Origin: Centroscyllium fabricii
Taxonomy: Eukaryota
Direction: 5' to 3'
DNA: 41,541 nt
Assembly (NCBI GenBank): GCA_051313645.2
Contig: JBNRSN020000027.1
Location: 25,628,460 to 25,670,000 of the forward strand
Under the pieces are notes generated by a model. The model saw nothing but the letters and a program-made list of their open reading frames with translations. It was not told the DNA's origin and made no database searches. The translations under genes were made by a program, and so were the position numbers. This document shows, one piece after another, positions 1 to 27,100 of the stretch (positions within the stretch are counted from its first letter, which is position 1; each line of letters starts with the position of its first letter).

Positions 1-2250
1 GCAATAAAATTGTATTTATCTATATTATAGAGCAAACTTATCTTTAAATTATGCAGCTTCTGCTTATCTATGTTTTGGAAATACAAATTGTAACCAATGA
101 GGTGGAATTCATGTTTTTAACATTTTAATCAGCATTTACACATTCTTTTTTCATTCCAAGGAAAAACTCGCATTGTGATGACAGAGATAAAGAACTTAAG
201 CAATTTTGATTATTATTTTAGATGGTAACAATATGATGTGTTCCACTTATTTTATGCTTACTCTAGCCATTCATTAGTTGCGGTTAGATAACATAATTTC
301 GCGCGACGTATACAATACTGATCATTATAAAGATATTATAAGTAGATATGATATCGCTACAAACAAGTTAAAAAAAATCAGTTTCACTATATGTCATTAG
401 TAAAGAAAGTTCCTCAATAATTTTGTGCAATACTCAGAATTGAAAGCACATTCCATGGCCTGGCACCTGTTAGACGGTGTAACTGCCCCAGTGTTCTTGC
501 ACCGTTAACAGGGCCATTCCGGACTGAAAGCCTTAGTTGCCTGTTGCGCCGATTATCTCAGCCATACCCCGCTCGCTGTCTGCTGTCCCTCGTATCCATT
601 TGCGGCCTTTTTATCTATCATTCTATCTAATTTATCGACGTTTTTATGTGACAAATGACCCGTTTCTCATGCAGACCTTCGTTCGAGCCCTGGCACTTCG
701 CTCTGCCTCTGAATTTTTCAACTCAGTAGCCCGCAGCCCCTTGTAATGTGTATCAAGATAAATATACCGGAAATTTAGCTTCCTGAAAACAGCAGGGTTA
801 AAAGTCAAATGGGCTCTGTTTAATAATTCACATGTCATATTTCTTCTATTTTGTCAAGTTTGCTAAAGAAGATGAAACGATTTGATGGCGGTGCAGTGGA
901 GTTGGTCAGATGGTCAGCACCTTGCCCCTGTTTGGGGTCCAGAATGGGTGTTACAGACACAACGTGCTAATGTACTATTTAAAATAAATTCATATTTCTT
1001 TGATCTATGTATAGGGCCGAAAGATGGATCTTCTCATCGATTCTCTGGGCTCTGGTATTTGAGATTTGCGTCAGCAGTTCCTATTCAAAGAACGTTGTGT
1101 ATAACTGTAAGCAAAGCTGTTAATGTTTCCGGATATATGTTTCATTACTATCACATAATGTAAATAGAAACCATAACTCGTACTTTAGAACAGTGTAAAA
1201 TGTTTCCGAAGACTTGAAGGGTGTGCGTGTTGTGTTTCCACTTCTACTTGTTTTGTATAAAGATATAATTTCTGAAGCAAAATCTTCTTTCTGACTTTAA
1301 TATCTTAGTGAGTGTAGAACGTGGATAACAATAGATTTCAGGCTGCAAATGCTCTCATTATCCCTCTGGATTTGTCTCGGAAACATCCATTTTATTACAT
1401 GCGACTTTCATTATTGGTCATTACAATAATCGGCGTGAGCTCAATTTATCAGCACTGCATTGGAGTATATTTCGAAATGACCTTCAAATGGTGTGAAAAT
1501 GACGATAGACTCTGTGCAGATTTAGGTAGAAGGCTCGGATCTATAATTTAACTTCTGTCCTCCCAGAACTTCCTCTGAGGCTTCGCGCTGAACGTTCCCT
1601 TTCGCCTCGATGCTAACAAGTCGCCGCAATAAATCTCGGCCAGAATAAACGTCATCAATCACCTTGAACTACTTCTATTTGTACGAGAAAGGGTTGTCTG
1701 CTAAACCGTGAATTAGACAACAAATTATCCCTCGATTCTGTAATAAACCATGCCTGATAAACCTTAAAAATCAAGGGAAATGTTTGAAATTGTTACAATA
1801 CAAAAAAAATTGCACTGAATACGTGCAGTCGAGTGTGAGAGTCGGTGAGAGTGTAATCTGCAGAATATCATTTTACAGTTAGACCATTGGAAAGGGGTTT
1901 AATATTCATCTCTCGCACTTTAAATTACGAAGGTTATCGTCTCCCAGAAGGTAACCGAAATAAAGCAATTCTAACCTGAAAGTTATCACAGGCCCACTTA
2001 TTCGGAAAAATACAGTCATGTGTTTTCATGCTTGACTGCATTCTCGCACAGGTAATGTAGAAGGCGCGGCGTGTCTTTATTAACACATAAACCTTCGACA
2101 TTATACTGGTGTATATGTTATACTATCATTGAATGTTCAATTGAACACAAGAGAATGGGATTCAAATACAATAGCAAACATTGAAACCAGTCTTCTCTGC
2201 AAGTATAAGAAAGCGGTATATAAAGCAGCCACGAGTTCTTAACATTTCTT

Positions 2251-2428
2251 GATGTGGAGGTGCTGGTGTTGGACTGGGGTGGACAAATGCAAGAAGTCAC
2301 ACAACACCAGGTTATAGTCCAACAGTTTTATTTGAAATCACAAGCTTTCGGAGCGTAGCTCCGAAAGCTTGTGATTTCAAATAAAACTGTTGGACTATAA
2401 CCTGGTGTTGTGTGACTTCTTGCATTTA
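2251..2428. mobile_element. Penelope-like (family A) 3'-end fold-back insertion
   Basis: Perfect 70-bp inverted arms 2285-2354 and 2358-2427 around a 3-nt loop (GTA). Flanked by direct repeat AACATTTCTT at 2241-2250 and 2429-2438 (TSD). Same sequence as the copies at 4469, 19182 and 24009. The centre is HHR stem II (GGAGC-nnn-GCTCC-GAAA). PLE assignment is inferred from the HHR plus inverted structure. Confidence 0.8.
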
Positions 2429-3312
2429 AACATTTCTTGTACTTAGGTGACATTTGTATCACCATCAGATCTAAATAAATACAAATTAATATATTTTCTA
2501 AAGCTGTGATTCGGGTAATAGTCTAACAGATAACGATTGACAATGTTTGGTAATGGTGTGTGAGGAATTCATAGAAAGCACAAAAAAGTTTCGCCTTTTC
2601 TCAGCACCTGGCGGGAAACGTTCAACACGGGCAACAACTGAGCGAGTTAGTAACTGAAAACAGGTTGCATTTTATTGGGGAAATGAAGCAAACCTGGATT
2701 GAAATAAAGTTTTCTGGAGAAAGAGAAATAACTGCCCTGGATCACTGAACGAGGAATTGACATAAAATGCTTCATTAGATCCACGCACGGCGTGTACCTG
2801 CAGAGCGAAGTTGTCCTATTGGAGTTTAAACACACAAGGCTGCAGCTGAATTGAACTTTAGATTCAACTCATATTTTTTTTTGTATTATTGCAACTTGTC
2901 TTAATGGCTGAGTAGGAGCATCGGCGGTACCTCTGACCCAAAGAGCTCAACGTCTAATGGAAAAGCAGAAGACTAAACTTTGTGTTACCCCAGGGGTTTG
3001 TCACCTTCGTGTTGACTGAGCAAAACCCCTTTACTTTTTGCTCGATTCAAGGCACAGGCAGAGAGAGTGGTCGCTCTCCCAGATCGTACATTAGAACGCA
3101 GAAAGGAGTCAGTGTGTTTAGCCAACCATCCCTGCGTTGTCCACCCTTCAGTCAAGCAGATTTTAGCTGCGTGTATCTCTGCGGCTGCTCTGTTATGCCC
3201 CGCGGGGAATATTCATAAGAATAAAGCGAGAAAGTTATTTTAACTGTAGATTATGGGGGGGGTGGGGGGGGGGGGGTTACCTATCAGCAATGCCCAGTCT
3301 AGCCATTTCATT

Positions 3313-3551
3313 ATAAGAACAGAAACTGCTGGAAAAACTCAGCAGACCAGACAGCATCGGTGGAGAGAAATATCGAGTCGACGTTTCGGGTTGGGACCCT
3401 TTATCAAAGGGGTTTTGAAAAAGGGTCCCAACCCGAAACGTCGACTCGATATTATTTCTCTCCACCGATGCTGCCCTGGCCTGCTGAGTTTTTCCAGCGT
3501 TTTCTGTTGTTATTTCGGATTTCCAGCATCCGCAGGATTTTGCTATCCTAC
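3313..3551. mobile_element. Penelope-like (family B2) 3'-end fold-back insertion
   Basis: Minus arm ~3318-3408 and plus arm ~3411-3546 are near-exact reverse complements. TSD CCATTTCATT at 3303-3312 and 3552-3561. An HHR-like motif lies on each side of the junction. Confidence 0.8.
3411..3446 (+). ncRNA. Minimal type I hammerhead ribozyme, U3:A8 core variant
   Basis: GGUU-UUGAAAA-A-GGGU CCCA ACCC-GAAA-CG-UC-GACU: stem I GGUU/GACU, 4-bp stem II, palindromic ACGU stem III. The GUC triplet predicts cleavage after 3442. Confidence 0.6.
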
Positions 3552-4468
3552 CCATTTCATTGCCCGTTAAATGTGAGGCACTCATTTCATTTCTATTTTT
3601 TTAATAAATATTGCTTGTGATGAATTATCGCTCAGACAGCAGAAATAGTTTTTTAAAGCCCATGAGCCACTTTCTGTGGATTCCGTTCTACTGATTTGGT
3701 GGCAGTTCAAGGAAAAAGGATAATACAAATCTCAAGGTGTTGCACTTAACACGCCTCAGAAATTCCCTTTTGTTGCAAAGTTGTGTTTAACATCTGCAAG
3801 AGAGCAGTGTTGCTTTTATCCCGACGATTGTGAAGTCCTTGCTTTCTACAGCACGGCCATGAAATTACACCTTTAAACACCCACAGCAATTGTTGGATTA
3901 ATACAATTTACAGAAATAACAGAAGCCAGTCCGCAGTAAGCCGTTTCTTTCTGAAATATTTAGGAGTGTGCATTTAAACATCCTATATAACTCATTCTAC
4001 ATGCTCTGAATAAACTTTGCAACTGTAATATTAAATAATAGGCAAGGCATGATGTTGCACTATAAAAGCATATTTTTTTTATTTAGGCTTCAATGTTGCC
4101 ACAGAATGTTCCTGTTGGAAGATCGCACCGGTCGACATCAATAAAGTGATTTGATTACATTGAATTTGTAGCCTTTGAAGTGTCTGTCTCTCCATCTTAG
4201 TAACACCTATAATGCAGCACATTACAATCTAATTGTGCCAGTATTCCATTTGGAAAGGACGCATTTTATGATGTTGACCAATGTGTATAGAAGGAAAAGG
4301 GCATTAGACCAACTCAAGTATCCCACGGTCATAGAAACTGCACATGGCCATATCCATATTAATTTCAGGATTGATTGGAATTGAACTATAATATTGGGAG
4401 AGGGGATTGGGGAGTAGGGGGACCCTTCCCCGCCACAAATATGTATATGTGATACTCACCTTCATCTA

Positions 4469-4588
4469 CAAGAAGTCACACAACACCAGGTTATAGTCCA
4501 ACAGTTTTATTTTAAACTATAACCTGGTGTTGCGTGACTTCTTGCATTTGTCCACCCCAGTCCAACACCGGCACCTCCACATCATGGC
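4469..4588. mobile_element. Penelope-like (family A) 3'-end inverted insertion
   Basis: Minus arm 4469-4515 joined to plus arm 4516-4588. Exact 12-bp TSD CACCTTCATCTA at 4457-4468 and 4589-4600. Confidence 0.8.
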
Positions 4589-4875
4589 CACCTTCATCTA
4601 GTTCGTTTTAACTAGGGGGTGGACACAATGAAACGGTCTTTTATTGACAAGGAGGGTGCTCTGGTTCCCTTATCCCCTGGCCTGTTCCATCGGATCGAAT
4701 GATTTATCTGATTAGCTGCAGGATTCACTTGTGAAGTTTGCTAATGCGAAATATACAGGGCGGGTACACTGAGTGACAGGGAGCCCTACCTTTGGGTACA
4801 TGCCTCAGCAACGTGCAAGTTCACATTAAATTTGTATTTTTTTTTGTTGTATCAGCTGCCGTGGAGATATCCAGT

Positions 4876-5205
4876 TGAGAGAGAGGCAGAGAGAAAGGGG
4901 GCGAGAGTCTATCATTCCCCCTTGAAACAGCATAATAAAGTAGGGTGTGTTTCAGTTCGGAGTGATGGTGGATAAGGGGGACGAGGGAGATGGGATTGGG
5001 GTGGAGGAGAGGGGATGGGATAGAAAGCGACCAGCTGATAGGGGGGAAAATAGAGACAAGGAGGAAAAGAGGATTAAAGAGGAAGAAAAAGAAGTGGAAT
5101 CTGGTGAGGGGGAAAAAAAGATAAAGGAAATAGATGAAATGTGAGGAGAAGAGAGGAAAAGACTGACAGCGAAAGATGAACGACGTAGGGGGCGAGGGTA
5201 GATCA
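4876..5205 (+). repeat. Purine-rich (G/A) low-complexity tract
   Basis: Strongly G/A-biased sequence; explains the spurious E/K/G-rich ORF 4947-5144. Confidence 0.7.
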
Positions 5206-5495
5206 GGAGAACTAACCTTCTCTGCCTTAATCAGTCCTCATTAATTTGTTTTGAGGATATCGTATTAGTCATGGAGCGTACTTAGAGTGTGTGAGCTGAT
5301 TAGCGTAGGGTAGTATTTAGAGTTTGTTTAGGGACGGGAGAGACTGTGTGATTGAGTGGAGAAAAGCTGATTACATCAAGGAATTCTATTTACCTATAAT
5401 TTTAGATCATCGGTAAAGCTTCAGTCTACTCGCTGAGCTGACCGTTCAAAGCATGTGATTCCACTTGCTGTTTTCTTTCAGTTCTCTCCGACTCT

Positions 5496-5951
5496 CAATT
5501 CAATTCAATTCAATTCAAATTTCTTTATTGGCATGACAAGATACATCTTATGTTGCCAAAGCACAGACAAAGGACATATACAATTGAACACACACACACA
5601 CACGCAGATCTAGACATACAGTGAGTGGACAAATATACCCATGTAAACACATATATGCACACATATAATCTTTTCTTAGATTCAATGGTCACTGGTTGCC
5701 CCTTTGCTTATGGCAAGCTGTAACGTAGTTTGCCGCTAATTTTATACAGTCCTTCTGTTCCCCCAATAGTTTTTGGTGGTCGTTCAAATTTTTGAATTCA
5801 GGGCAAGTTTTTTATGAATTTGGGGTAGAAATCCCCCCTTATGTCCTGATAGTTTTCACAGGTTGTGAGGAAATGCAGCTCTGTCTCCGCCGCTCCCTGA
5901 CTGCAGTGGGAGCACAGCCTTTCCTCTCTGGGCAGCCAGGTCTGTCTATAG
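5496..5951 (-). mobile_element. 5'-truncated RTE-X-like LINE 3' end
   Basis: Minus strand reads YRQTWLPREERLCSHCSQGAAETELHFLTTCENYQDIRGDFYPKFIK, then a frameshift, then TCPEFKNLNDHQKLLGEQKDCIKLAANYVTACHKQRGNQ* (stop at 5691-5689). This contains a C-terminal CxxC...H...C knuckle. It is followed by AATAAA and a (GAATT)n tail. Confidence 0.8.
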
Positions 5952-7500
5952 CCTGTCGTAACCTGTAATAGAATGCTCCTTGACAGGAGTTAAACTCTAT
6001 CGACCATCAGATTCATTTCCAGCTGAGAGACGAGAGATAATATATAATATTTTACATGCCTGGGGCTTTTTAAAATGAATGTACTAAACATGCATAAAAA
6101 GCAGTTCTCTCAGAAGCAACGGCAACAGAGATTCAAGTTGTGTGTATTGATCACTTTTTAATGTTAAGCTGCAACTTAGCGTTAGATTTGTGCCATTCTC
6201 GCTGATTATTGTTCTTTCTCTTGGTAGACGAGGCTTCTCACTCGTATTTTTTCTTCATGCAGATATCAAAGGTCTTCTGGTCAAGCTGATGGGAGGTCAT
6301 TCTAATAATACCCAAGGTCACTTCGGGGAGCCAGCGAGTCTCACAGTCATTTTTCACTTGCTTGCAGCATTAACTGACAGTTGCAGGGAACTGGATGTTG
6401 CCGGCCATGGACATCATGTGATGTCATCAGCACATGCCACAGGATTAGAGGACAAGCAGGAGCAGGGGTCTGTGGATTAAAAGGGAGCAACAATTTAAAA
6501 AAAAGACATATGATGGCAGCGAACGCATATCTTGCGGATCATATTCAGTGTGCGCAAAGCTGGAAGACAGGATGGTGTTTATTTTGATCTGAGCCCAAAC
6601 CTTCCCTTGGCGCTGCTCCAGAATATCTACCGTTTGGCCATTGGTGCCGCGGTGAAAAGTCAACACAGTTCAGTGACTGGATCTCGAGGGGAAAAAACAA
6701 ACGCCGAGAGTGTTGCCTGAACATTTATCTAATAAAGACTTGCTGCAGACATCCTGCAGAACATCCCTGGGACTCCCTATTCCTTCCTGCCCTGCCCAAC
6801 CCCCCCAAAAAAGACAATGGCAAGATTTCAGGCTCCATTGCCATCCTCGGTATTTGATTTACATTTCAACTGTAATTAAACAGTTGAAGAACAACAATGT
6901 CGACAAATTCCAGCTGAACTTTAAGTCTGCTTCTCCCCTGCCTTCGTGGCCCTTCATTAGATACTTTCCTCTTGGAGCAGGAGGTCAGGGAGTATAAATA
7001 TAAATTGCATTTTGCATTACTTCTAGATGAGTGAAGCTGTCAAACCAATAATACTAGCTTTCAGTCCCACTTTCTGCCACTTCTATCCCATTTTTCGGCC
7101 AGCAGGTCATGCACAAATTAAAAGTGACAGCCCAGCCGGCATGTCCAACAGACTTATATTGTTATAGGTTTCTGTCGTGGCACAGATCTCAGATCACAGC
7201 CTCAGCCTGTCTCTGTGTCCCCGGTGCCTGCTGGAGATACTGCCAGCCTTAAGGAAGCGCTGAAGAAAAGGAACGGAAAACGTGCTTGAACATGTGGCCA
7301 TTAATGGTGACGTGGACAGGGGGGTGGGGGGTGCGGGGGGAGACGTTTATTGACAAATTAAATGGATCTCGTTTGTTGGTTTGCATTTCTCAACTGCCCC
7401 ACATTCACATGCTGTTCGCTCGGTCACAACTGAACACTGTTTCTTCAAAGTGAACTTTCAACATTTTGACTGGAAAGATGAAATGGACGGCAAATATTTT

Positions 7501-7701
7501 GAGTTCTAACAACAGAAAATGCTGGAAAAAAAACTCAGCAGGCCAGGCAACATCCGTGGAGAGAAATATAGAGTCGACTTTTCGGGTTCGGGCCCTTTGT
7601 CAATATTTCTCTCCACCGATGCTGCCTGGCCTGCTAAGTTTTTTCCAGCATTTTCTGTTGTTATTTCGGATTTCCAGCATCTGCAGTATTTTGCTATCAT
7701 A
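7501..7701. mobile_element. Penelope-like (family B2) 3'-end inverted insertion
   Basis: Minus arm ~7508-7603 ends exactly at the first core base of the HHR motif (TTGACAA on minus). Plus arm ~7604-7697. TSD CAAATATTTT at 7491-7500 and 7702-7711. Confidence 0.8.
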
Positions 7702-9498
7702 CAAATATTTTCATTTACAAGTTGATCAATTTTATTGACCTGTGAAAGGACCTGCATGATATAACAATCAAATTGTATTGCAGCGAATTCTGCATTTTTT
7801 GATCTCTCATATTTTTCCTCGAATTGTTTTATTTCAGTGTGATTGCTCACAGATGAACGGTTGCTTAGTATTATGTATATGTGGGTTCTACTTTGCCAGT
7901 CTCCTTCACTTACTGGATCCGTTCACGCTGTCAATGTTGTCGCCGCACGCTTTGAACGACTGTAGAGAGACATCCCAGGACATTCATTGATGGGCAGATT
8001 TCCTTTCGCTCCAGACGTGTTGTTTTGCCAAAAGAAAAAAAAACTGGAAGAGTGTGGCAACACGAGTTGTGGGCGACCCTTTCCATAACCTCAAGGTCTG
8101 ATGCAACAAACAGCTGAAACAAAGTTTATCATCGAGTCTTACCTGAAATGGACGTGTCGGTGACATTTCTCTATTAAATTAATACCGACTTTCTGACTTA
8201 TTGAGGGATCTGTGCTCTTAAAACTCTAGCACAACTTTCATTGCATTCTTTAGCGGTCAAGTTTTTACAGAACAGAAACTTAAAACTTGTTAACAAATAT
8301 TCCCCCAAAATATTGAAGCGTTTATTTCAATGTTCGAAGTTATTTTTTTTGGCTGCGGAATTACAATCTCCAGCAGTCAGCTTGTAAAATGTACCCAAAG
8401 AAAATTAATCGATGAAATGTGCTTGTGGAAAAGGCTATCACAATGTAACAGTAAGCTGTTGCATAATACTGTCACTGTTTTTTAATCTGACAAGTTTGTA
8501 CAAGAGGTAGTTACTGCTAAATAAACCATGTGAAAATGTACATATTTTAATTGAATGAGAGGTGATTGCCCCTAAACTGTCAATCATCCTTTTGCCATTT
8601 TTGCATAAATTATATTGCAGCTTCAGTTATCTGTTCGGACCTACTAACCCTATAAGTGATGTTCTGCACTTTTCAGAGGACCGTGCTTAAGAGGCTTAAG
8701 AGGCGCGCATGTGAAGTGTGTTGCAGTGCGAACATTAATTGTTTTCGGACGAAAACCAGGGAGATATATATTTTGTTTTCCCCATTCTCGCTAATTGTCT
8801 CCATTCATGAAGGCATTGGCTTCTTCTGGGGGATGTGCTTCCATGAGCATCACGTTGCCCTCGTTACCTCAGTGGCCGCTATTCAAATGTGAGCCTTAAA
8901 GGTGACTGTTGGCTTGCTGCACAACCTCAGGGGCCATCGCACCAGATCGCCAACCCATCCCCCGGCGTCCAAACATGCGCACACTGTGCAGGGAACTGGA
9001 TTGCGATCAGCAATGGGAACCCTGGCCAATCTCCCCCTGCTTTATCCAGGCGCACTCAGACCAACTGTAGCACCCTCCTCACTACCATGGCGGAGAACCA
9101 ACGACTGCAGTACAGCAAAACAGCAGGAAACGCTGGAGAAACTCAGCAGGCCAGGCAGCATCGGTGGAGAGAGAAACAGAGTTTCAGGTCGATGACCTTT
9201 CTTCAGAACTGGAGAAGCCAGGAGCGGGGGGAGGGGGGGATAGATTTTAAAGCTTGTGGGGGCTGGGGAAAGGGGGAGGGGCTGAAAGAACAAAGGAAAG
9301 ATCAGCAACAGGCTAGAAGGCGGGGGAGATAAGAGATATTAGGAGACATTCGAGGAATACAGGACGGCTAACGGCTCTGGCAGAGTAAAGAAAAAAGCCC
9401 AGACGAAAGGGTGGGTTGAAAAAGAGAGAATATATATATATATAAAAAAGTGTGGTAGGGGCCGAGGTTATGATCTAAAATTGTTGAACTCTATGTTT

Positions 9499-9695
9499 CA
9501 AGTCATTAAATATATTCATATATTTAAGAAGGAGTTGGATATATTTCTTAGAGCTAAAGGTATCGAGGGATATGGGGAGAAGGCAGGGACAGGGTGCTGG
9601 GTTTGGATGATCAGCCATGAACTTATCAAATGGTGGAGCAGGATCGAACGGCCGAATGGCCGACTCCTGCTCCTATCTTCTATGTTTCTATGTTT
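9499..9695 (+). mobile_element. CR1/HER1-type LINE 3' fragment nested in the PLE
   Basis: Encodes IFKKELDIFLRAKGIEGYGEKAG; 3' end GGCCGAATGGCCGACTCCTGCTCCTATCTTCTATGTTTCTATGTTT. TCTATGTTT occurs at 9490-9498 and 9687-9695. The empty site is visible in the paralog at 11838-11846. Confidence 0.9.
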
Positions 9696-9849
9696 AGTCC
9701 AGAGGGCTGTAGAGTGCCTAAAATCTCTTATCTTGCCCCGCCTTCTAGCCTGTTGCTGATCTCGCCTTTGTTCTTTCAGCCCCCCCCCCCTTTCCCCAGC
9801 CCCTACAAGCTTTAAAATCTATCCCCCCCCACCCCCCCCTGGCTTCTCC

Positions 9850-9886
9850 AGTTCTGAAGAAAGGTCATTGACCTGAAACGTTAACT
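9850..9886 (+). ncRNA. Minimal type I hammerhead ribozyme (canonical core)
   Basis: AGUU-CUGAAGA-A-AGGUC AUU GACCU-GAAA-CG-UU-AACU: stem I AGUU/AACU, 5-bp stem II, palindromic ACGU stem III. The GUU triplet predicts cleavage after 9882. Confidence 0.75.
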
Positions 9887-10558
9887 CTGTTTCTCTCTCC
9901 ACCGATGCTGCCCTGGCCTGCTGAGTTTCTCCAGCGTTTCCTGTTGTTATTTCGGATTGCCAGCATCCGCAGTATTCTGCTAATGTGGTGCACCTTCCTG
10001 GTCCGTATATTTCAGGCATACCCTTCAACTGAGTGTGCCATTTACACCACGAGGACTGTGGTGGGTGGATACATGGGTCAATACATTTAGTAACCTCAGA
10101 AATAATGATATACAAGCTTAAAAGAGCACGAGTTATTTTCAAGGCTACTGGTTTACAACGACTGAACAAGTCAAATTCTGCTTTGAATACATGGGACTTC
10201 GAGATTTTTTATCAGTGACTTGGGGATTGCGTTACGCAATGCTACCATTTGTAATTGGGGACCGTGATTTACTCTGACTCAATAAATCAAATTGCACTTT
10301 TATAATATAGGATTCCTGTATTTATTCCCATGTTTTGAGGCAATCTCATTCCACGATTCTCTGCATTTTTCCAGTCTGCAGTGGTCTTAACTCATACAGT
10401 CTCCATATCACCTAGAGAATTCTTTTATAACAGCCACCAAAGTAGAGATGCATATTTATAAATTATGCAACGCCGGCTTTTGTGATTCAGATCTCTTTAA
10501 CAATTAAATTAGCTTGGTTTTTGATTAGCTTTGGTTCTGTTCTTTTCTGTTGTATTAG

Positions 10559-10688
10559 GAACATAGAAGATAGGAGCAGGAGTAGGCCATTCGGCCCTTC
10601 GAGCCTGCTCCGCCATTCAATGAGATCATGGATGATCATCCAAACCCATTACACTGTCCCTCTCCTCTCTCCATATCCCTCGATCCCT
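10559..10688 (-). mobile_element. CR1/HER1-type LINE 3' end joined to the HE1 SINE
   Basis: Reverse complement matches the last ~130 nt of the CR1 copies at 14027 and 15190 (AGGGATC.AGGGATATGG...GAATGGCCTACTCCTGCTCCTATCTTCTATGTT). Confidence 0.85.
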
Positions 10689-10956: not shown

Positions 10957-11388
10957 TTATTGGCGGCACGGTGGCATATTATTGGCACCTTGTTTATGAC
11001 ATCACTGGAACAACAGTCCTGGAGGAGATACTGAACTTTCAGAGTTAATCAACTCGGAGGAATATATATCTTCCTTCATTCATCATGGTGGAGAAAAGTC
11101 AACACGTGTAGAAAGCGGAAATGTGCTTAATACTGACATTAACATTAGAAAATACACCCCAAAGAGTTTAGGTCTCTAATTTCCAGAAGCAACCCTGGGC
11201 TATGAAGGTTTTGACACATTTGCGTTTCGCTCATTGAACCCGGAGCGAATGACTTCGGTTCTCTGCAGGTTTGATGGGCCACTTCTTACTGGCACCTCCA
11301 AAACCCAGATAGTGATTCATTACAAATCACAACAGGAAACGCTGGAGAAACGCAGCAGGCCAGGCAGCATCGGTGGAGAGAGAAACAG

Positions 11389-11425
11389 AGTTAACGTTTC
11401 AGGTCGATGACCTTTCTTCAGAACT
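11389..11425 (-). ncRNA. Minimal type I hammerhead ribozyme (canonical core)
   Basis: Minus strand AGUU-CUGAAGA-A-AGGUC AUC GACCU-GAAA-CG-UU-AACU; differs from 9850-9886 only in the stem II loop. Confidence 0.75.
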
Positions 11426-11465
11426 GGAGAAGCCAGGAGGGGGGATAGATTTTAAATCTCGTAGG

Positions 11466-11602
11466 AGCTGGGGAAAGGGGAGGGGCTGGGGAAAGGGGGA
11501 GGGGCTGAGGAAAGGGGGAGGAGCTGGGGAAAGGGGGAGGGGCTGTGGAAAGGGGGAGGAGCTGGGGAAAGGGAGAGGGGCTGTGGAAAGGGGAAGGGGC
11601 TG
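11466..11602 (+). repeat. G-rich ~19-bp minisatellite (about 7 units) inside the PLE
   Basis: Tandem units of RGCTGGGGAAAGGGGGAGG; the paralog has a single unit near 9261-9283. Confidence 0.85.
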
Positions 11603-12769
11603 AAAGAACAAAGGAAAGATCAGCGACAGGCTGGAAGGCGGGGAAGGTGAGAGACACAGGGATAAATTGAAGGAACACAGGATGGCTCTGGATGTGTGTG
11701 AACGGCTCTGGCAGAGTAAAGAAAAAAGAAAAAGAAGAAAAAAGCCCAGACGAAAGTGTGGGTTGAAAAAAGAGAGAAAATATATATATATAAAAAAGTG
11801 TGGTAGGGGCCGAGGTTATGATCTAAAATTGTTGAACTCTATGTTTAGTCCAGAGGGCTGTAGAGTGCTGTTATGGCCTCATAATGTTTGTGCGGTGACG
11901 CCAAGAGGTCCCGATGCATGCACACAAAACAGTTTGGCTAATTTTGTAACCATGTATCTCTAATATTACCTCAAAATTGGGCAAACAGTTAAGGAACGAT
12001 CTTGCACATTATTTCCCTCCCCTACCCTTTGGGGGCAAAGCGCAGAAAGCGGTTTTTACAATGCAATCTGGGATCTGCAGTTTAGGTCGGAAACTCTAAG
12101 ATGCCGGGGTTCTATAATTGAGTTTGGAGATTGATTCAATCTGCTACTTAGCCTGTTTTACGCACCGACTTTCGCAGTGTGTGAAGCGAGAACCGCCTTG
12201 CAGCAACACTACAGCTGGTATGTGAATATACCCTTACACACCCAGTGACCCGTGCTACTGTTGGGCTCAGTGACTCGCCCGCCAAATCTCATAAGCAATG
12301 TGCCTTTTAATAAAAATTGACAAAAAAAAGATGGAAAGCGCACGAAATTAAATCTTAATTACCATCATACAACCACTTTCCGATCAATGTGAGGCTCTTT
12401 TGGGCGTGCGTCGATATGATATCAGCGTTCTAACATGGGATTAAGCATTGATCTGACTCAAGTGTAGTAAAGTGAGATATATGTACCCACTTCTGGTGGG
12501 TAGTCTCACACTCTTTGGAGCTCACACAGGATGTGGTAAAACTCCAATCTAGTGTAAAGCTAGTTTTAAAACCTGGTCCATTTGCCCTCAATTGAATTTC
12601 TATCTCCAGTGTGGAATATGTTTATCTTTCCTTCCAAACACTTTAAGGACAAAAACCAAAAAAAACACAAAAAGATTGCAAGTTGAGAAAGAAAAACTGG
12701 CAAAAGTTTAAAACACTTCATGGCAAAGCATTAAAACATTTTGTTCTACAACAGAGACACAGTAATACA

Positions 12770-12925
12770 AAAGCAAAATACTGCTGATGCTGGCCATCTG
12801 AAATAAAAACAGAAAATGCTGGAGGTACTCAGCAGGCCAGGCAGCATCTGTGGAGAGAGAAACAGAGTTAACGTTTCTGAAACGTTAACTTTGTTTTTTT
12901 CGCCACAGAAACGGTCTGACTTAAC
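12770..12925. mobile_element. Older Penelope-like (family B) fold-back fragment
   Basis: Minus arm 12770-12877, palindrome centre AGTTAACGTTTC-T-GAAACGTTAACT at 12878, diverged right arm. No clear TSD. Confidence 0.7.
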
Positions 12926-12968
12926 AGAATAGAGCCTATTGGTGTTCATGCCACCATAGTAACGGTGT

Positions 12969-13345
12969 CCGATAGCAAAATACTGCAGGTGCTGACAATC
13001 CGAAATAACAACAGAAACTGCTGGAACAACTCAGCAGGCCAGGCAGCATCCGTGGAGAGAAATATAGAGTCGACGTTTTGGGTTGGGACCCTTTGTCAAA
13101 ACTAAAGCCAGGAAATGAAACAGGTAGGAAGGCCGGGGGAGCTGGGAGGGGACAAAGGGGAAGAGGAAATAAAAGAGAAGAGAGAACAAAAGAGGAAAGA
13201 CATTAAGAGGTATTGAAAATGAGACGAGAGGCTGATGGGGCTGTGGACAGGAGACAGCGAGAGATTGGGTGTGAAAAGCACTGGCAGAATGGGAGGCGGC
13301 TGCCACCAGAGAAAAAAGCCTTTGCAGCATTTTCTGTTGTTATTT
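12969..13345 (-). mobile_element. Penelope-like (family B2) 3' end with a short inverted terminal copy
   Basis: Minus-strand body with HHR-like motif at 13068-13103 (AGUU-UUGACAA...; GAAA mutated to AAAA at a CpG). Short plus-strand copy 13325-13345. 13-bp TSD ATAGTAA(C/T)GGTGT at 12956-12968 and 13346-13358. Confidence 0.8.
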
Positions 13346-13869: not shown

Positions 13870-14650
13870 ATAACTTGTGTTCATAGTCTTGGTATGTCCC
13901 AAAGTGCTTCATCGTCAATGAATTGCAAGTGTAAGCTCTGTTGTTAAGGAGAGACATGCCACAGCCAATCAGTGCTCAGCAATGTCCCAGAAACAACAAA
14001 TAAGGCAAATGACCAGTTATCACAATGAAACCTATAAAATTGTCAGGCCTGGACAGACGAGATGCAGGAAGGATGTTCCCGATGGCCGGGGAGTCCAGAA
14101 CCAGGGGGCACAGTCTAAGGATAAGGGGTAAGCCATTTAGGACTGAGATGAGGAGGAATTTCTCCACCCAGAGAGTGGTGAACCTGTGGAATTCTCTACC
14201 ACAAAAGGCAGTTGAGGCCAATTCATTAAATATATTCAAGAAGGAGTTAGATATATTTCTTAAGGCTAAAGGGATCAAGGGATATGGGGAGAAGGCAGGG
14301 ACAGGGTACTGAATTTGGATGATCAGCCATGATCTCATTAAATGGCCGTGCAGGCTCGAGGAGCCGAATGGCCGACTCCTGCTCCTATCTTCTATGTTTC
14401 TCTGTTTTGGTTGAGGGCTGAATGTTGGTCAGGTGACCAGGAAAACTCTGCTCTTCTTGAAATAGTGAATGGGATATTTTACATCCACCCGAATAGGCAG
14501 ACAGGGCCTCAGATTAATGTCTAATTTGAAAGACTGCTCCTCCCACAAAATTGCGTGGGATTATCAGCCTAAATTACCTGCACAAGTCCGAGAATAGGGC
14601 CTGAACCCATAATTCAGACTCAGAGGCAAGAATGATACCACTGAGTCAAA
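13870..14650 (-). mobile_element. Old Deu-domain SINE (SacSINE1/AmnSINE-like), interrupted by CR1
   Basis: AATGACCAGTTATC | TGTTTTGGTTGAGGG...CTGCTCTTCTTGAAATAGTGAATGGGATATTTTACATCCACC...GACTCAGAGGCAAGAATGATACCACTGAG resembles the reverse-complemented Deu-SINE consensus as recalled, and continues across the CR1 insert. Confidence 0.7.
14027..14401 (+). mobile_element. CR1/HER1-type LINE 3' fragment
   Basis: ORF2 C-terminus RTRGHSLRIRGKPFRTEMRRNFSTQRVVNLWNSLPQKAVEA, 3' UTR and TTCTATGT tail. Confidence 0.93.
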
Positions 14651-15189: not shown

Positions 15190-15573
15190 TTGAGAGGGGA
15201 TCTCATCGAAACCTATAACATTCTGTCAGGACTGGATAGACTAGAAGCAGGAAGGATGTTCCCGATGGTGGGGGAGTCCAGAACCAGGGGTCACAGTCTA
15301 AGGGTAAGGGGTAAGCCATTTAGGACTGAGATGAGGAGGAATGTCTTCACCCAGGGAGTGGTGAACTTGTGGGATTCTCTGCCACAGAGGGCATTAAATA
15401 TGTTCAAGAAAGAGTTGGCTATATTCCTTGAGGCTAAAGGGATCAAGGGATATGGGGAGAGAGCAGCGACAGGGTACTGAATTTGGATGATCAGCCATGA
15501 TCTCATTGAATGGCGGAGCAGACTCGAGGGGCTGAATGGCCTACTCCTGCTCCTATCTTCTATGTTTCTATGT
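15190..15573 (+). mobile_element. CR1/HER1-type LINE 3' fragment
   Basis: LRGDLIETYNIL...TRGHSL...VVNLWDSLP, a classic CR1 ORF2 end. Small internal deletion relative to the 14027 copy. (TTCTATGT)2 tail. Confidence 0.93.
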
Positions 15574-19000: not shown

Positions 19001-19181
19001 TATTTCAGGGTAATTCAACAGCGCTGATCTGAAACACAGACACATGAACAAATAACAGGGTGGATTTCAGAAAAAGGCGCCATGTCTCGATTGGCGAACA
19101 TTTAAATTAATATTTAACTCTTGCCATCCATGAGAGGGTATATGCTGCTGGAATACACCGTGAAATAGGATGCACCCTACA

Positions 19182-19284
19182 CCAGTCTCTCTTTCACCTG
19201 ACGAAGGAGCAGCGCTCCGAAAGCTTGTGATTTAAAATAAAACTGTTGGACTATAACCTGGTGTTGTGTGACTTCTTGCAATTG
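19182..19284 (+). mobile_element. Penelope-like (family A) 3' fragment with complete HHR
   Basis: 19214-19280 matches the right arm of the 2251 element. Possible 7-bp TSD CCCTACA at 19175-19181 and 19285-19291. Confidence 0.8.
19194..19230 (+). ncRNA. Minimal type I hammerhead ribozyme (canonical core)
   Basis: UCAC-CUGACGA-A-GGAGC AGC GCUCC-GAAA-GC-UU-GUGA: stem I UCAC/GUGA, 5-bp stem II, palindromic AGCU stem III. The CUU triplet predicts cleavage after 19226. Confidence 0.78.
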
Positions 19285-19904
19285 CCCTACAAAAAAAACA
19301 CCTTTGCAAGTATTCCTTTGAACATGCTAGCCGTGTGGACAATGCAATAGAAAATGAGAAGGGCTAGAGTACTGTAAAAAACACACAGTGTGCCAGTCTG
19401 AGAGTAGAGAGCCCTTTCTATTTGAGGTGAATTCAAGTGAACCCTAATATCACCGAGGTTGCATTAGGTAAATACGCCCCGTTTGCTTCAGACTCGCAGC
19501 TTTGGTTGGCTATGATTTTTTATACAAAAACAAGACAGACAGACTGATTTGTGTTTCCCCATCCTCTGATCACGCTGTTTATTCTTTGAACTCCAAAGCA
19601 GCATGTTTTTGCGCGTGAAGTTTAGTTGAAATATACAGTGGAGCTGATAAGAATGATTTGTTGTAGCAAGGCTTGAGTGAAGACTATCCTGCACTGTCAA
19701 ACACGTGCAGGGAAAATGCGTTTCTCTCTGAATGTGTAGCTGATTAATAGCGAACCGCTAAAGGCAGCCAGCCGTGAGACTATTAGAAAAAAATTAAACA
19801 GCTTGTGGTAGAGGTTCGCCACAGACAACACAACTAGGATACTGGGCAATAATTTAATGGTGATGTCAGCTACAAAAACTGGTCATCAATCAGCGCAGGG
19901 TTTT

Positions 19905-20285: not shown

Positions 20286-21549
20286 AAAATCTGTCCATTT
20301 CAACTAAGTTTATCTTGCAACACAAGGATGGGGTGACATCTATTCACAGTTTTATTGATTTGCAGAAGTACAAACTACACAACTAATAAACCAACTGAAA
20401 AGGGGTTTATACTGAGGTCCTCACTCTTGTGCCCACCTACCTACCGCACTTCAGTTACAGTATCTTCAAACCACACGAAATGTCACAAAAAGAGACTTTG
20501 GTGTAAATCGAAATTTTTCCAACTTATTTGACTTGTGACCTAGTGCTAATTAAGAAAATGAATCTCGATTTTTATTCCTTTTCCCAAAACGCATCGTTAG
20601 TTTATGTCGTGCAGAAAACGCCCACATATATTCTGTGAGGCGTGATTAAATCCTTCATATCTGTAAAAACACGCCCCATAGATATTTTAACGTTAACTCA
20701 TTATAATTGTAATAACAATATTCTAGGTGCCCATCACAAAGAGTGATGTACAGGAGATTAACTAATGCCCCAACATTGCATAACTTTAAAATGATAATTT
20801 TATATGAAACTTGCATTTGCAGAATGGTGAATGATAAAACAAATGGCAAACGCTTGCAACGTCTCAATGCAATCTTCCTTTTGTATAAGCAAGCCACTTC
20901 AGAATCTGCAGTTTTAAACTTTGCCTTTATTGGTAAAAATATTGCCGACTATTATTATATAAGCAACTATTTTCGATAAAATTGGCAAATGATAGTATCT
21001 GGCATCGTAGATTTGCAAAATTGTAATGATCTTTGCTGTCATTATAATGTAATATTAATATTGTAACTTGGCAGGGGACATTCACTTTTAATATTCCTGG
21101 TCTGATTATTTGGGTCTTTGACTGTTGTATCAAACTTTTTTTGAAATTGATGCCTACCGGTGACGTCATTGATTCAGCCTGCTTCAAGCCATGTTGAAAA
21201 CAAACATGTTTCTCTAAACGTCACTGGCCACCGACTTGTCTGGGACTGCACTGGGTTCCCGTGTTGTGGCTTTCACTGCATGCATTCATTTTTCTCAGTG
21301 TGCAAACCAGTGGAAATGTTTTAAAAAAGAAAGGGAAAATCACGCGACCACTCTCATAAGCAACACGTGCTTAAAAGAAAACTTTGATTTGTCTTTTTTT
21401 ATTTTGGTCCGCCACTTAATTTTATTCACAATTTCCGCTAACTCGGGCTTTGAAGGCAGAGAGGCAACAAGACAGACGCCAATCTCTTTTCTGAGAGAGA
21501 CCCGTCATCCCAGCGATCAGAGACTGTCAGAACAGTGCTTTCCAAATTC

Positions 21550-21790
21550 ACTCACCCTGCAAGACATCGCTGCATCAAAATGCAGCCCAGTTACAGACCT
21601 GAATTTTTTGATTATGAATCCACTGATCTTGTTTTGAAATGCGAATCAGTAAGCCCATAAGCCTTCAAACGTGTGAAATTTGAAAGATCTCAAGAAGCAA
21701 TCTCCGGCTGCCTGACCCCTGACAGCCTGTCTGACACTCTCTCTCTCTCTCTCTCCCTCTCTCTCTCTGGCCCTGGCAGTATTTAATTCG
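21550..21790 (-). promoter_or_regulatory. Candidate promoter and first exon of an unidentified minus-strand transcript
   Basis: TATA-like TTAAATA (21786-21780), (GA)n leader, two ATGs just before the donor AGG|GTGAGT (exon end 21556). CRE-like sites at 21931 and 21971; perfect TGACGTCA at 21161-21168. Confidence 0.35.
21737..21768. repeat. (CT)n microsatellite
   Basis: Directly visible. Confidence 0.9.
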
Positions 21791-23898
21791 CTACAAAATA
21801 TCTTTTAGATTTGCGTCTACATTGAATATCCATAGAGCGCCGTTCCTGTGCGGGGCAAACCTTTACCATGTCGCAACTCGAGGATTTGTGTGAAAAATCA
21901 TTATCTGAAATACAGATTGAAATTAGAGCAGACGTCACCACGCAATCGAAAGAAGCCAAGACCTGGAAAATGACGTATTATCCATTGGATTTCACTTTAA
22001 TCGTGTTTGGTTAAACAAGATGCGACTAAATCATTTGATAGAAGGGAAGTTTCGTAAGACAGGTTAAAAGTTTCAGTCGCAGAGTGTGCATCCGTCAATG
22101 TTACACAGTAACAAGTGATGTTTCAAACCGAATTCTCACATGCTAACTCTATATATATAATATATATAAACACACGATATAGAATCGTAAATAATCATAT
22201 ATATATATATGATTGAATGAAAGAAAACGATTAAACGTTTTTAATAAAAGTTAAATATTTACTTAATGTAACCTACTGAGCTAAAAGTTTGGCTAACTGT
22301 CCCTCATCATTAAGTGCTGCAGAGGCGCTTCCCCTGATATCAGAATTCCAAACCCTGCGTTATAACAACCTGATCATTTTTGATCAATAAATCCCTGCAC
22401 CAAACGCTGCAGAAGCTGTGTAATTCCTTCCTTAAGGGGAGAAAGATGATGAAACAGTAAAATAGAAAATCGATCCCAAAGTACTGAAAGTAAGACCAAG
22501 TCTGTGTTTATTTGTCACTGTTTGGATAATTACAATAAGACCTTTTTAAAATGCTGGAATGTTTTTGTTCTGTGTTGCCAATCAGCTATACTCGGTTTCT
22601 CAATGTGTCCGCTAACAATTTAGCTTTTTTTTTGTTGCCTTGATGATGAAATAAAGTTCTCCTAAGTAATCAGTGATTTCCAGTTTTGTTTCTGGTGCTT
22701 GTCATAGCTCCCCTTCGATTTTCTGCTTATTGCTTCCTCAAATGTTTGTACAAATGCATTTCTTCAACTCATTCAATCCCAACTATTCGCTCGCTTTCAC
22801 AATGCACTTGTCTATTTCCCGTCAGCCTGGAGAGATGCATGCAACTCATTGGATCTCTTATAGCTATCAATAAATGTCATTAAATCAAGATAAGTAGCGG
22901 TTGCTCTGAGATACATATTTCTACAGACAGTGTGTATAACACGCACTTAAAAAAACAGCAGTAAAACTGAGTGTTGGCATCTTCGCTGTGGTTTGTAACT
23001 TTTTGGGTAGAGTTGGTTTGTGCCTGTATAGTATGTGGGTGTAATTACCACCCCCAACCCCTGCAAACACACACACAGAGTTTGGACCGTAGACTATGTC
23101 ATTAGATCCAATGGCAAGTCTTTATGGAAAGTGTTTTGCATAATTACATGCCATAGCCAGAATACTAACCCCGACATTTTATGGGTCACAAAACTTTAAC
23201 AATTGCCACATTATTGTCCAAGGCACGAAGTACGCCACTATCGGCTTGAGGAGAAAGTAAATCTAAGAATGTGAGGCCGAAATTTTCTCAGAACCCAAAG
23301 AAGAGAGATTATTCCAATCTGACAACGTGTTTACTTATAGCTACCGAGTTCAGCGAACTTCAGGGTCCCCTGATTGAGAACTTCATCGTGATCCGATCTA
23401 GAAACCCATCAAAGAAATAGACCGAAAGGGCTCCCTTTTCAAATCTATTTTTTTTTTGCAATCGTTACCTTTGTGTCGCAGTAATTAAGATATTCTTATC
23501 TAGGGAGACAGTTTCTCTGGTAACTGAATAATGTTGTGTCTTTGATGCGAACTTTTGACAGTTATCGCATCAAGGTTGGTCAATTTGCTCAATTGCCCGC
23601 TTTTCAAATTCGATGAAAATTATTGTAAGCGTGAATCGTGCAGCGCAATGATTCAAATCTTAGTGGACACTGATCTTCGGTATAATCTACTCTTAGTTTT
23701 AAGTGTTTTTTGGTGTAGCATTATAAATCGTATGAATTGCTTGACATTTAAACAATTGTTTCGATTTTTGGAATCCGATGATATTTCCATATATTTTCTA
23801 TTCTGAAGGGCTGGGGAATTAGCATTATAATGTAACACGTAATTTGTGTTAGATCTACTATAAACTATAGAGACCTGTCGGGTTCAGAAAATGTATTG

Positions 23899-23924
23899 AT
23901 ATATATATATATATATATATATAT
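23899..23924. repeat. (AT)13 microsatellite
   Basis: Directly visible. Confidence 0.9.
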
Positions 23925-24008
23925 TTATGTTAGAATTACTACGATAGTTTTATTGTGCAATACGGAGCAATCCTGTATGATATGAATTACAAGAACTAGT
24001 TTTCTTAA

Positions 24009-24162
24009 TGATGTGGAGGTGCCGGTGTTGGACTGGGGTGGACAAATGCAATAAGTCACACAACAACAGGTTATAGTCCAACAGTTTTATTTCAAATAAC
24101 AAGCTTGTGATTTCAAATAAAACGGTTGGACTATAACCTGGAGTTGTGTGACTTCTTACATA
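24009..24162. mobile_element. Penelope-like (family A) fold-back insertion
   Basis: Imperfect palindrome centred on AAGCTT (24101-24106), which is HHR stem III and the cleavage site. 11-bp TSD AGTTTTCTTAA at 23998-24008 and 24163-24173. Confidence 0.8.
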
Positions 24163-27100
24163 AGTTTTCTTAAGGCTGAGGTTGTCATCTCACATTATAT
24201 GTACTGTCCCTGTTTTAATCCCCGTTTCTAGGCTTTAAAGTCTTGAGAATATGATGAATTTTTTGGTAAAGTCTAAATAGATCTCGTCTCAATTCACTTG
24301 GACGCGAGGTTTTCCGTGACAAAACCTCCCGAATTCATTCCCAGCAGGCTCGCCTATTGGGGGAAGGGGGTGAAGGTAGAGAGACTACAAAGTAAATCAA
24401 TGCCACGATAAATCCGTTACGTTTCTGCTTATTCCTGACACACCGATGTTAGAATGAAATCATTCTGATCGACGTGGGGTTCTTTTTCGGTTTGGAAAGG
24501 CCCTGGCGAAATAATTCCTCCACGCTCACCTTAAATGTAATTTAGTTTTAGGGGGGGATTCATTGAATATGCTCCATTTCAAACTGTCCCTCTCCAGCGG
24601 AGTAGGCGGAATCTCCAGCACCTGTGGCACCGCCATCTGTGGAGGGCTATTGCACAAAAACTGATAACAAGGTGAATTTTGATCAGGTTCAAATTTCGTC
24701 TAAAATCGGCAGGATGTGTGTGTAGGGTCTATCTTGACAGCCATGCCACAATGTTGACATTTAAAAGTGGCTGGTATATTTGTTGGACCATTGGCGAGGG
24801 AGATGGGTAGGGGACCTAAACGGTAGTCTGTCAAATAAATGCCAGGAGCGTCATGAATGGTTTCAATATTTGGTTCGATTGCATTGCAGATATACATTCG
24901 TTTGTTTAATGCTTTCTAAAGCCTTTTGCTACACATGTGCTTCGCGTTAGTTCGAAGTGAATGGAGTTATTTGTACCATAGATAGCACCAACTGCAAACA
25001 AATATGTGTTCAACCAGTGGGAAAATTTAGATTTGTAACCAATTAGTTGTGAAATAAACAATAAAATAACCTTTATTTTTGTACATGCACCGCTGTGGAA
25101 CCATTGAAACGGCTTAATACGGTGCACGGAGCTCCAGTAATGATACGTTCACAAGTGGAACTTGTCTAACATGCTGTTCAACAGGTGCTTTGCAGAATCT
25201 CGTCATGTTCTGAGCACCTCTGACGTATCGCAGCTGCAGGCTTTGAAGACAGTTGAAGTTTCTTTCAAACGAAGAATTTCTATTACATTGCGGCCGCCGA
25301 TTGTGTTAAAATAAACTTCAACGTCTATTGATGAAACATAATTTCAACGTTATGCTCTTTGCTAAAGCCAATTTCATCGGCTGAGCACAACATTAAAATA
25401 TAGATGACGACAAGCCGTTTGGTGGGGGCACTATTTCACCGCGTCCCCTCTTTTTGTGAATACTATTTTACTGGACTCCAAAGTAATACGGCTGTGTAGC
25501 GCGTAACAATTGAAGGACAAGTTATCATACTGTGTTCAGAAATTCCACGCAATAAATCAAAGAACACCGCGCATATAGGTTGGTAGAGTGTAATTCGGCT
25601 GTGTCTAGGAGTTTATGGGAGAGTATTTCAAATAGGAGAGTATTTTAACAATAGTCAACATCATAAATATTCCAAATAACATGGTTGCATTCATTGGAGA
25701 GAACATTACATTAGTTGACCATAAAATATAGAGAGAGAAACCATTCCCCTGACCTGCAGGATAACTTCCGTGTTTTAATCATCAATGTGCAAACTGATTT
25801 CCCATGCCGTCATCCAATTGACCTTACCGTCAAGGATTTTTTGAAAGATTTATCAATAGGACAAATGACTTAAGATAACTTCAGGGAGACAAAAAACGTA
25901 CTAAGCTCCCATAATCATAATCGCATACTTATCATCTACAAATGAAATAAAAAGCACCAAAAGTTTCAAATTAGTTCTCGAAAGACTTGATTCCATTATA
26001 AGCAGCGGAAGACTGTACAGTTCACGTGAAACGCACATCATTTGACAAGATAACAATGATATAATAAGTACAATTATTGTGTTACACTGCTGAATACTTT
26101 TAAAGCATTTGGTCAAACCATTCCCCTTATTTTAATGAAAAACATTATATGATTTTTGCTTTTAAACCTGGTAGCGATTCATTTAAATATAGCGCCAGCA
26201 TTGAATTATAGTACTGGAAATAAGTACGGAATAAAATTATTAAATATATTTTCTCAGCACTTTACCTTTTTGCACATTAATGAGGTAAAATGATCGAGAA
26301 TGAGACATAATTTCACGGAGAAAATATGTGACACCCCGTTTGTCCATTTTCTTGAAATCTGTAAAGAAAACAACGTGTTTTATCACCTGAAATCACCAAA
26401 AGAAGAAAAACGCAAAGAACAAATTGATTTGCTCTGGACGTTATTATACTGATGCAGCGACGGTGACAACCTGACAATTGTAAAGATCCGAAGGAAACAG
26501 GAAATTAGAAAATTCACAGAGAGCTATAAAGCTTCAATGAAATTTACCTTCAGAACACAGACCATGAAGGATCACAAGCAGATGGATTATTAAATTATGA
26601 CAGCGGCCCCCGTCCTTGGAAAAAATAACTACAATTTATTTAAACGCAGCAAATACAAATTTACTTTGAATATAAGAAATATTTTTGGGTGCAAACTATT
26701 ATATTTGCGCGTTAACAAGTATTCAATCAATTTTGCACAATACATTTCCTGCATTACTTCTTCGCTAACTTTTTTTTCTACATAGCATATAATTGAATTG
26801 TAATGATCAAAAGTAATCAGTCAGCACCGTATCTCCAAATTGCAACCCCAGCCCCCCCCCCCCCCCCATTTTAATGTGTAAAATAGGTTATATGCGAATT
26901 AGTTGTTTTTCTCACTTTTTCCAAAAAAAAAGAAAGGTCTTTTGATTGCCCCTTACATTGAACTCAATGCGAAACGCTCAAAAGTTTAATAGTAGGTTGT
27001 AATGGTGCATCCGCTCCGAGTTTATTGCCTGATACCCGTTTGGGACAGTTAGATTGGTGCTCACTGTTAAATCAGCTTTTTTCAATTACAATCTATCATT

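Follow-up and report, generated by a model that had tools for sequence, protein, structure and literature searches.

Head-to-head stubs of Penelope-like elements in Centroscyllium fabricii end at the hammerhead helix I edge and probably arise by priming on both target strands

We analyzed a window of 41,541 nucleotides of the Centroscyllium fabricii genome (assembly GCA_051313645.2, contig JBNRSN020000027.1, positions 25,628,460 to 25,670,000 of the forward strand; positions below count from the first letter of this stretch), in which several short inserts form imperfect palindromes. These inserts are 5′-truncated head-to-head copies of two abundant families of Penelope-like elements (PLEs), here called A and B. 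The inserts are real, and both their class and their layout, i.e., an inverted copy, a tail on one side only and a flanking target-site duplication (TSD), were already known (PMC8557442, PMC3846280; these papers, like all others below, are cited from the accessible part of their text). The contribution made here consists of genome-wide numbers that favor priming from both target strands and run-off at a predicted transcription start site. With tens of thousands of short inserts in a single genome, statistics become available that discriminate between models, and these weigh against ribozyme cleavage and against snap-back of a cDNA as the insertion mechanism. Overall, it is probable that a separate cDNA is primed on each strand of a staggered target cut and that the two are later joined at their inner ends. 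A sequence-only reading of the window had instead proposed that cleavage or structure of the hammerhead ribozyme terminates cDNA synthesis and that the ribozyme hairpins let the cDNA fold back and self-prime. It had considered this an under-described mechanism, a view that is not supported: the layout and the self-priming explanation have both been published (PMC3846280, PMC8557442).

Both families are numerous, a 28-mer downstream of the family A hammerhead having 111,008 exact matches in the 7.2-Gb genome and a family B 30-mer 44,017. Fold-backs were counted genome-wide by the distance separating two 16-nt anchors in opposite orientation. In family A (15,060 fold-backs in total), 648 showed a spacing of 0–30 nt, 2,154 of 31–60 nt, 2,926 of 61–90 nt, 7,210 of 91–120 nt and 2,122 of 121–150 nt, the peak bin being the one in which both arms cover the entire hammerhead. 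For family B, the spacing boundary was fixed in advance from the family A result and only two bins were counted, with 1,340 fold-backs at 71–100 nt versus 211 at 101–130 nt. Individual end positions were read from consecutive pattern matches (100 for family A and 76 for family B); random 10-kb stretches, with 3 family A and 2 family B matches per 200 kb, were too sparse for sampling. Six family A matches were removed (three passengers in another repeat and three mis-assigned ends), leaving 94. Per 100 nt at risk, family A 5′ ends occurred at a rate of 0.30 downstream of the ribozyme, 0.16 around the cleavage site, 0.76 within the hammerhead and 0.33–0.49 upstream, while the rate reached 2.51 from −1 to +12 of core position C3 (22 ends; binomial p = 3e-8, for a window selected after inspecting the data). 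Family B, once duplicates and passengers were removed, displayed 15 independent ends at −3 to +5, against 3 or 4 over the 35 nt that follow. Inner ends of both families are therefore concentrated within ~12 nt 5′ of the hammerhead core, i.e., at the 5′ edge of helix I.

These distributions bear directly on the proposed role of the ribozyme. Junctions are enriched at the hammerhead far above chance genome-wide in both families, as had been predicted, and are not evenly spread along the 3′ end (7,210 in the family A peak bin versus 2,122 in the next), but the peak lies at the helix I edge rather than in the stems or at the cleavage site. Cleavage as the stop of cDNA synthesis is not supported by the ends themselves: of the 94 unbiased family A ends, only one falls ≤3 nt from the cleavage site, which of all segments has the lowest rate. 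Exact hairpins centered on stem II (474) and stem III (524) each make up ~1–3% of fold-backs genome-wide, with 2 of 50 and 4 of 50 among the loci listed in their respective spacing bins, and these two palindromes are local hot spots only. Because single copies with an abutting TSD stop at the same helix I edge, the peak is not a product of palindrome decay.

We next consider the two arms of each pair. Among 100 consecutive family A arms, 32 were in short adjacent pairs and 52 had an inverted partner ≤3.5 kb away. Pair-wise counts were based on 118 family A pairs, or 110 after removal of eight duplicates and passengers; loci picked by a query containing the stem II junction were excluded from the extent and overlap counts and included in the tail, loop and site-discordance counts. 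A full tail was found on one arm in 100 of the 110 pairs, on both arms in none and on neither in 10, and the 15 family B pairs displayed it on one arm in 13, on none in 1 and on two in 1. One arm includes the ~37-nt tail up to its end, and the other stops where the tail begins. TSDs were 10–14 bp in 50 of 87 pairs and of other lengths in the remainder, and the 93 junctions analyzed comprised 55 with an overlap of ≥2 nt, 11 that were blunt or overlapped by 1 nt, and 27 with extra bases.

If a single cDNA halted at the hammerhead through cleavage or structure, folded on the ribozyme stems and copied itself, akin to the self-priming on an antisense template to which palindromic junctions have been attributed (PMC3846280), the second arm would match the first exactly and contain nothing beyond it. 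Because a copied arm cannot carry a tail missing from its template arm, under snap-back the tailed arm should never fall short of its copy on the 5′ side, and snap-back is unsupported as a general route. The expected relationship is violated by extent in 34 of 83 family A pairs, in which the tailless arm reaches farther (the tailed arm does so in 22, and 27 agree within 3 nt), including the window inserts with junctions at 4515 and 7603, and by haplotype in 8 of 30 assignable pairs, in which stem II differs by ≥2 substitutions or in loop length (6 unassigned; random pairing would give 52%). In addition, some inverted arms consist of the tail only (L047, L202 and L205), and among symmetric stem II hairpins with a readable origin of the loop (14, with 17 others unreadable), the tailless arm supplied it in 6 and the tailed arm in 8. 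Neither does the cleavage site show any excess of ends, and the loopless AAGCTT of stem III would fit annealing of two strands better than folding of one. On the other side, exact hairpins at stem II and at stem III are found repeatedly, at loci whose flanks differ, arm lengths are correlated, and arms usually belong to the same subfamily, with the symmetric stem III class discordant in only 3 of 48 pairs at one site (two third-allele rows dropped). As a general route, snap-back is refuted, and we consider this explanation of the inserts improbable, although snap-back or single-RNA copying may apply within the small, perfectly symmetric stem III class. The published self-priming model (PMC3846280) likewise does not match the arm asymmetry and haplotype data obtained here.

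Instead, we propose that the element protein would nick both target strands, and that each target 3′ end would prime reverse transcription at one of two internal start sites bounding the tail, on a template of either one RNA or two RNAs. Transcripts from the promoter in the pseudo-long terminal repeat (pLTR) would begin at helix I, such that most cDNAs would run off after ~90–130 nt, and the two cDNA ends would be trimmed and then united by microhomology or end joining. The hammerhead would be present at the junction mainly as the occupant of the first ~45 nt of the RNA, its palindromes acting as occasional annealing sites, and ribozyme cleavage would play no part. These nicks, priming sites, run-off and microhomology joining could together account for the observed architecture, end positions, arm asymmetry and mixed haplotypes. 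We lean slightly toward a broader claim, namely that PLEs routinely integrate by synchronous double target priming, with a dimer starting one strand at each tail end, often on two RNAs, and with the commonest product being a strong-stop-like cDNA pair from a TATA/initiator start exactly at helix I. If true, synchronous double priming would account through a single mechanism for the inverted repeat, the one-sided tail and the origin of the upstream pLTR, and would displace the published self-priming model. Six long head-to-head pairs (L137, L141, L143, L145, L161 and L139) have similar arm lengths, e.g., 178/178, 119/119 and 238/225, which suggests two syntheses coupled in time.

Several known systems can be compared with this proposal. 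In L1 twin priming, cDNAs primed on both target strands are united through microhomology into an inverted, TSD-flanked insert, the second primer landing upstream on the same RNA, so that the arms share no sequence overlap; in the present inserts, the 3′ segment copied is the same in both arms, and the arms of some pairs derive from different RNAs. In vitro, the Poseidon element of Anolis carolinensis nicks and extends both target strands; its reverse transcriptase (RT) starts at two internal sites, one at each boundary of the tail, a dimer is predicted, and hammerhead cleavage is dispensable (PMC11167929). That element belongs to the Penelope/Poseidon clade, whereas the families studied here have a Neptune-type zinc-finger linker, and inverted products and the junctions within them are not discussed in the accessible text of that study. 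The complex insertions of endonuclease-containing (EN+) PLEs share with those described here an inverted 5′-truncated pLTR, a tail on one arm and TSDs of ~8–14 bp (PMC3846280, PMC8557442), as well as palindromic or overlapping junctions and TATA and initiator-like motifs in the pLTR (PMC3846280). By contrast, the present inserts are mostly 150–260 bp long, amount to tens of thousands, and show a sharp limit of their inner ends at the helix I edge. Minimal type I hammerheads are known from metazoan PLEs, including opposite-strand pairs 100–700 bp apart, for which the accessible text notes no clustering of junctions (PMC4209133). The hammerheads found here, known from their sequence, resemble these in their CUGANGA...GAAA core, short helix II and palindromic positions 15.2–16.2, and one family B lineage has the U3-A8 variant (PMC4209133). 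A literature search of open-access main texts returned, beyond the papers cited here, no account of junction clustering at the helix I edge, of two-strand priming in inverted PLE copies or of PLE pairs from two templates.

The helix I edge is likely a transcription start, because a TATA-like box lies ~30 nt upstream of it in both families. Specifically, long copies of both families have a TATA-like motif that starts 33–39 nt upstream of C3, preceding the peak by ~30 nt, and a pyrimidine-A motif resembling an initiator at the peak itself; a rotifer pLTR has a TATA box and a TCACT initiator (PMC3846280). No untemplated cap-derived G was evident in the sampled ends checked by eye. Two-strand priming could also be combined with a different origin of the pile-up, through a splice acceptor or other processing end, or through RT drop-off after unwinding of a hammerhead–protein complex. 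The family B sequence upstream of the edge does resemble a 3′ splice site, with a pyrimidine tract and a YAG at the edge, an intron of Drosophila virilis Penelope stops at the 5′ end of helix I (PMC4209133), and protein helps hammerhead folding in the Poseidon system (PMC11167929). However, family A has no AG at the edge, yet its ends peak there too and its TATA-like box is equally far upstream. For family B, a TSD or an inverted arm adjoins 13 of the 15 copies stopping at the edge, and no shared upstream exon was found among them. A structural block would moreover be expected to act 3′ of the fold, where ends are rare. We thus regard processing or drop-off as unlikely, if less so than snap-back.

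A number of points weigh against two-strand priming with run-off from a start at helix I. Besides the splice-site-like sequence of family B and the intron end at helix I of D. virilis, the start site is predicted from sequence motifs and end positions, and the D. virilis Penelope promoter is internal and TATA-less, with a start farther upstream (PMC2377424). The samples were drawn mostly from the beginning of one contig, and the family A peak window was, as stated above, chosen post hoc. Arms also resemble each other far more than random pairs would: discordance affected 24 of 231 diagnostic sites versus 17–50% expected, with a background mismatch of 5.4% and with position −29 discarded as a CpG-decay site. 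The rarity of discordance in the stem III class points in the same direction, as does the correlation of arm lengths (rho 0.67, n = 26), which snap-back predicts likewise. Given this likeness of the arms and the correlation of their lengths, a single RNA or a single source locus may have given rise to many of the pairs.

A further possibility is that the hairpins form a self-propagating non-autonomous family or are DNA transposons resembling miniature inverted-repeat transposable elements (MITEs). Identical junctions are indeed found at many loci, and some fold-backs share identical ends (the L190 group, with 7 of the 76 family B matches, and L045/L093/L095). Whether identical junctions recur at different loci had been raised as a test by the sequence-only reading; the recurrence proved to reflect separate events or passengers, and no self-propagating hairpins were seen in 110 pairs. 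Recurrent stem II junctions represent separate events, because the loop, the side bearing the tail, the end of the short arm and the TSD vary among them, while the fold-backs with identical ends also share flanks, i.e., are carried within other repeats. Most junctions are unique, arms are unequal with a one-sided tail, TSD length varies, and none of the 110 pairs belonged to a clade with a shared asymmetric junction, outer ends and private mutations but unrelated flanks and their own TSDs. Self-propagation or DNA transposition is therefore very improbable, the least likely of the explanations considered. In particular, a MITE or other DNA transposon would have fixed terminal inverted repeats (TIRs) and a fixed TSD length, whereas here TSDs vary and arms are unequal. 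The earlier suggestion that MITE-looking palindromes are made by retrotransposition is borne out by these variable TSDs and unequal arms and by an RT–endonuclease open reading frame (ORF). In annotation, such palindromes should be labeled PLE stubs, and not MITEs, miRNA hairpins or new ribozyme devices. Non-LTR (long terminal repeat) retrozymes, which consist of tandem head-to-tail hammerhead units (10.64898/2026.07.22.740005), were also rejected, as the window inserts are single head-to-head pairs.

Passengers inside other repeats were found at L190, L204, L239, L241, L245, L269 and L271, at L045, L093 and L095, and at L059, L063, L127 and L167. These stubs and fold-backs have the same junctions and common flanks, and inflate recurrence counts. 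Separately, TIR elements were observed at one spot of the family B hammerhead (L196, L207, L238, L247, L262 and ~10 more of the 76 matches). They are 100–900 bp long, with a G-rich left and a C-rich right end and an apparent 2–3 bp duplication, and are inserted directly after GAAAC at the cleavage triplet, with both ends present in five cases and one end otherwise. We take these to be Harbinger-like MITEs, with what looks like a strong target preference for this spot, and their insertions can imitate a truncation at the cleavage site.

Families A and B are assigned by motif to Neptune-type PLEs, because of a C-x4-C-x2-C linker and GIY-YIG-type motifs in both and an RVT_1 match in family A. Pieces of the family A ORF are found in L161 and L147 (RVT_1 match, E 1e-6), and the ORF includes a VVY...YIGET motif of GIY-YIG type, identified by eye; a Pfam search of single decayed ORF pieces returned no GIY-YIG match. 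Homologues of this ORF carry PF00078, one of them also PF01541, and the closest named homologue is a shark protein with 87% identity. A family B end in L075 is preceded by an ORF with YIDD and VY...YIGES motifs. The C-x4-C-x2-C linker is present in both families, and a CX2-5CxxC zinc-finger linker between RT and endonuclease is a feature of the Neptune clade (PMC8557442). L147 contains a full-length family A unit of ~3.1 kb that consists of an inverted copy, a pLTR, the tail, an ATG immediately after the tail, a decayed ORF and a second pLTR. Overall, the families display the hallmarks of EN+ PLEs, i.e., pLTRs, an optional inverted copy and a 30–40 bp tail just before the ORF. The 3′ ends are bimodal, ~37 nt apart in family A and ~30 nt apart in family B, corresponding to the known optional tail. 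A minimal hammerhead core with its helices was recognized in the pLTR by sequence and partly by folding, and constitutes a predicted ribozyme; an Rfam scan gave no hammerhead match, and its HAV_CRE and mir-39 matches, below gathering scores, merely reflect hairpins.

Within the window, the sequence-only reading had listed six fold-back inserts, five of them with exact TSDs of 10–12 bp. The five TSDs were confirmed (11, 10, 12, 10 and 11 bp), and these five inserts have real inverted arms, matching over 70 nt at 100%, 40 nt at 98%, 29 nt at 97%, 45 nt at 91% and 58 nt at 88% identity. Insert A1 has an 11-bp TSD at 2241–2251 on the forward strand (right copy at 2429–2439), a left arm at 2252–2356 (−) that is a family A 3′ end with the ~37-nt tail and is the source of the stem II loop, and a tailless family A right arm at 2357–2428 (+) that begins in hammerhead stem II; the junction at 2356 was correctly placed in the stem II loop. 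Insert B1 (3303–3561; 10-bp TSDs at 3303–3312 and 3552–3561) comprises a tailless left arm at 3313–~3409 (−) and a tailed right arm at ~3412–3551 (+). Both arms stop just 5′ of a U3-A8-type hammerhead core, as had been noted for the junction at ~3410, and differ from each other at several sites.

For two other inserts, the end of the tailless arm is located at or close to the hammerhead as described, but the tailed arm starts well downstream. In insert A2 (4457–4600; 12-bp TSDs at 4457–4468 and 4589–4600), the junction lies 3′ of the hammerhead, and the tailless left arm at 4469–4515 (−) extends farther 5′ than the tailed right arm at ~4513–4588 (+). In insert B2 (7491–7711; 10-bp TSDs at 7491–7500 and 7702–7711), the tailless left arm at 7501–7603 (−) covers the whole hammerhead to core position 3, and the tailed right arm at ~7600–7701 (+) is without a hammerhead. 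Insert A3 (23998–24173; 11-bp TSDs at 23998–24008 and 24163–24173) consists of a tailed left arm at 24009–24103 (−) and a tailless right arm at 24104–24162 (+), with one subfamily-diagnostic site differing between arms. Its junction at 24103/24104 is indeed the center of the stem III palindrome AAGCTT but does not coincide with the cleavage site: by standard hammerhead numbering, it is offset from the scissile bond by 3 nt on the 5′ side, and each arm retains bases absent from a cleaved 3′ product. The sixth insert, B3 (12765–12918), is weaker. It consists of a tailed copy at 12765–12877 (−) that stops at GAAA, followed from 12878 by an inverted right arm of ~40 nt with 80% identity that is exact only over the first 12 nt. 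No TSD was found at the insert flanks, and its status as a single insertion event is doubtful.

Other PLE copies in the window include a long head-to-head family B pair at ~9119–9982 that was absent from the earlier list, with a tailless left arm at 9119–~9718 (−), broken by another repeat at 9499–9695, and a tailed right arm at ~9717–9982 (+). Its junction (~9718) lies >100 nt upstream of the hammerhead, and no TSD was found for this pair. Single copies comprise a longer tailless family B copy at 11324–11870 (−), with an intact hammerhead at 11397–11421 and a TATA-like motif upstream, a tailed family B copy of a second lineage at 12965–13150 (−) that includes sequence upstream of the hammerhead, and a tailless family A copy at 19186–19287 (+) that begins just 5′ of helix I and contains an intact minimal hammerhead, with its core from 19198. 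At ~12 copies in 41 kb, the density of PLE stubs in the window is ~10× that of random stretches (L018–L037: 20 stretches of 10 kb from the largest contigs, with 5 matches in 200 kb). The U3-A8-type core of one family B lineage is seen at 3390–3420, 7580–7603 and 13075–13102; this lineage is without a TATA-like motif in two long copies, yet its copies also stop at the helix I edge. A different interspersed repeat, presumably resembling the 3′ end of a long interspersed nuclear element, has copies at 9499–9695, 10556–10688, 14019–14407 and 15200–15573. Finally, four shark host proteins (P0003, P0007, P0009 and P0011, with septin 5a, XRCC5 and NOXP20-like annotations) contain segments with 76–83% identity to the family A ORF, which represent either exonised PLE pieces or gene-model errors.

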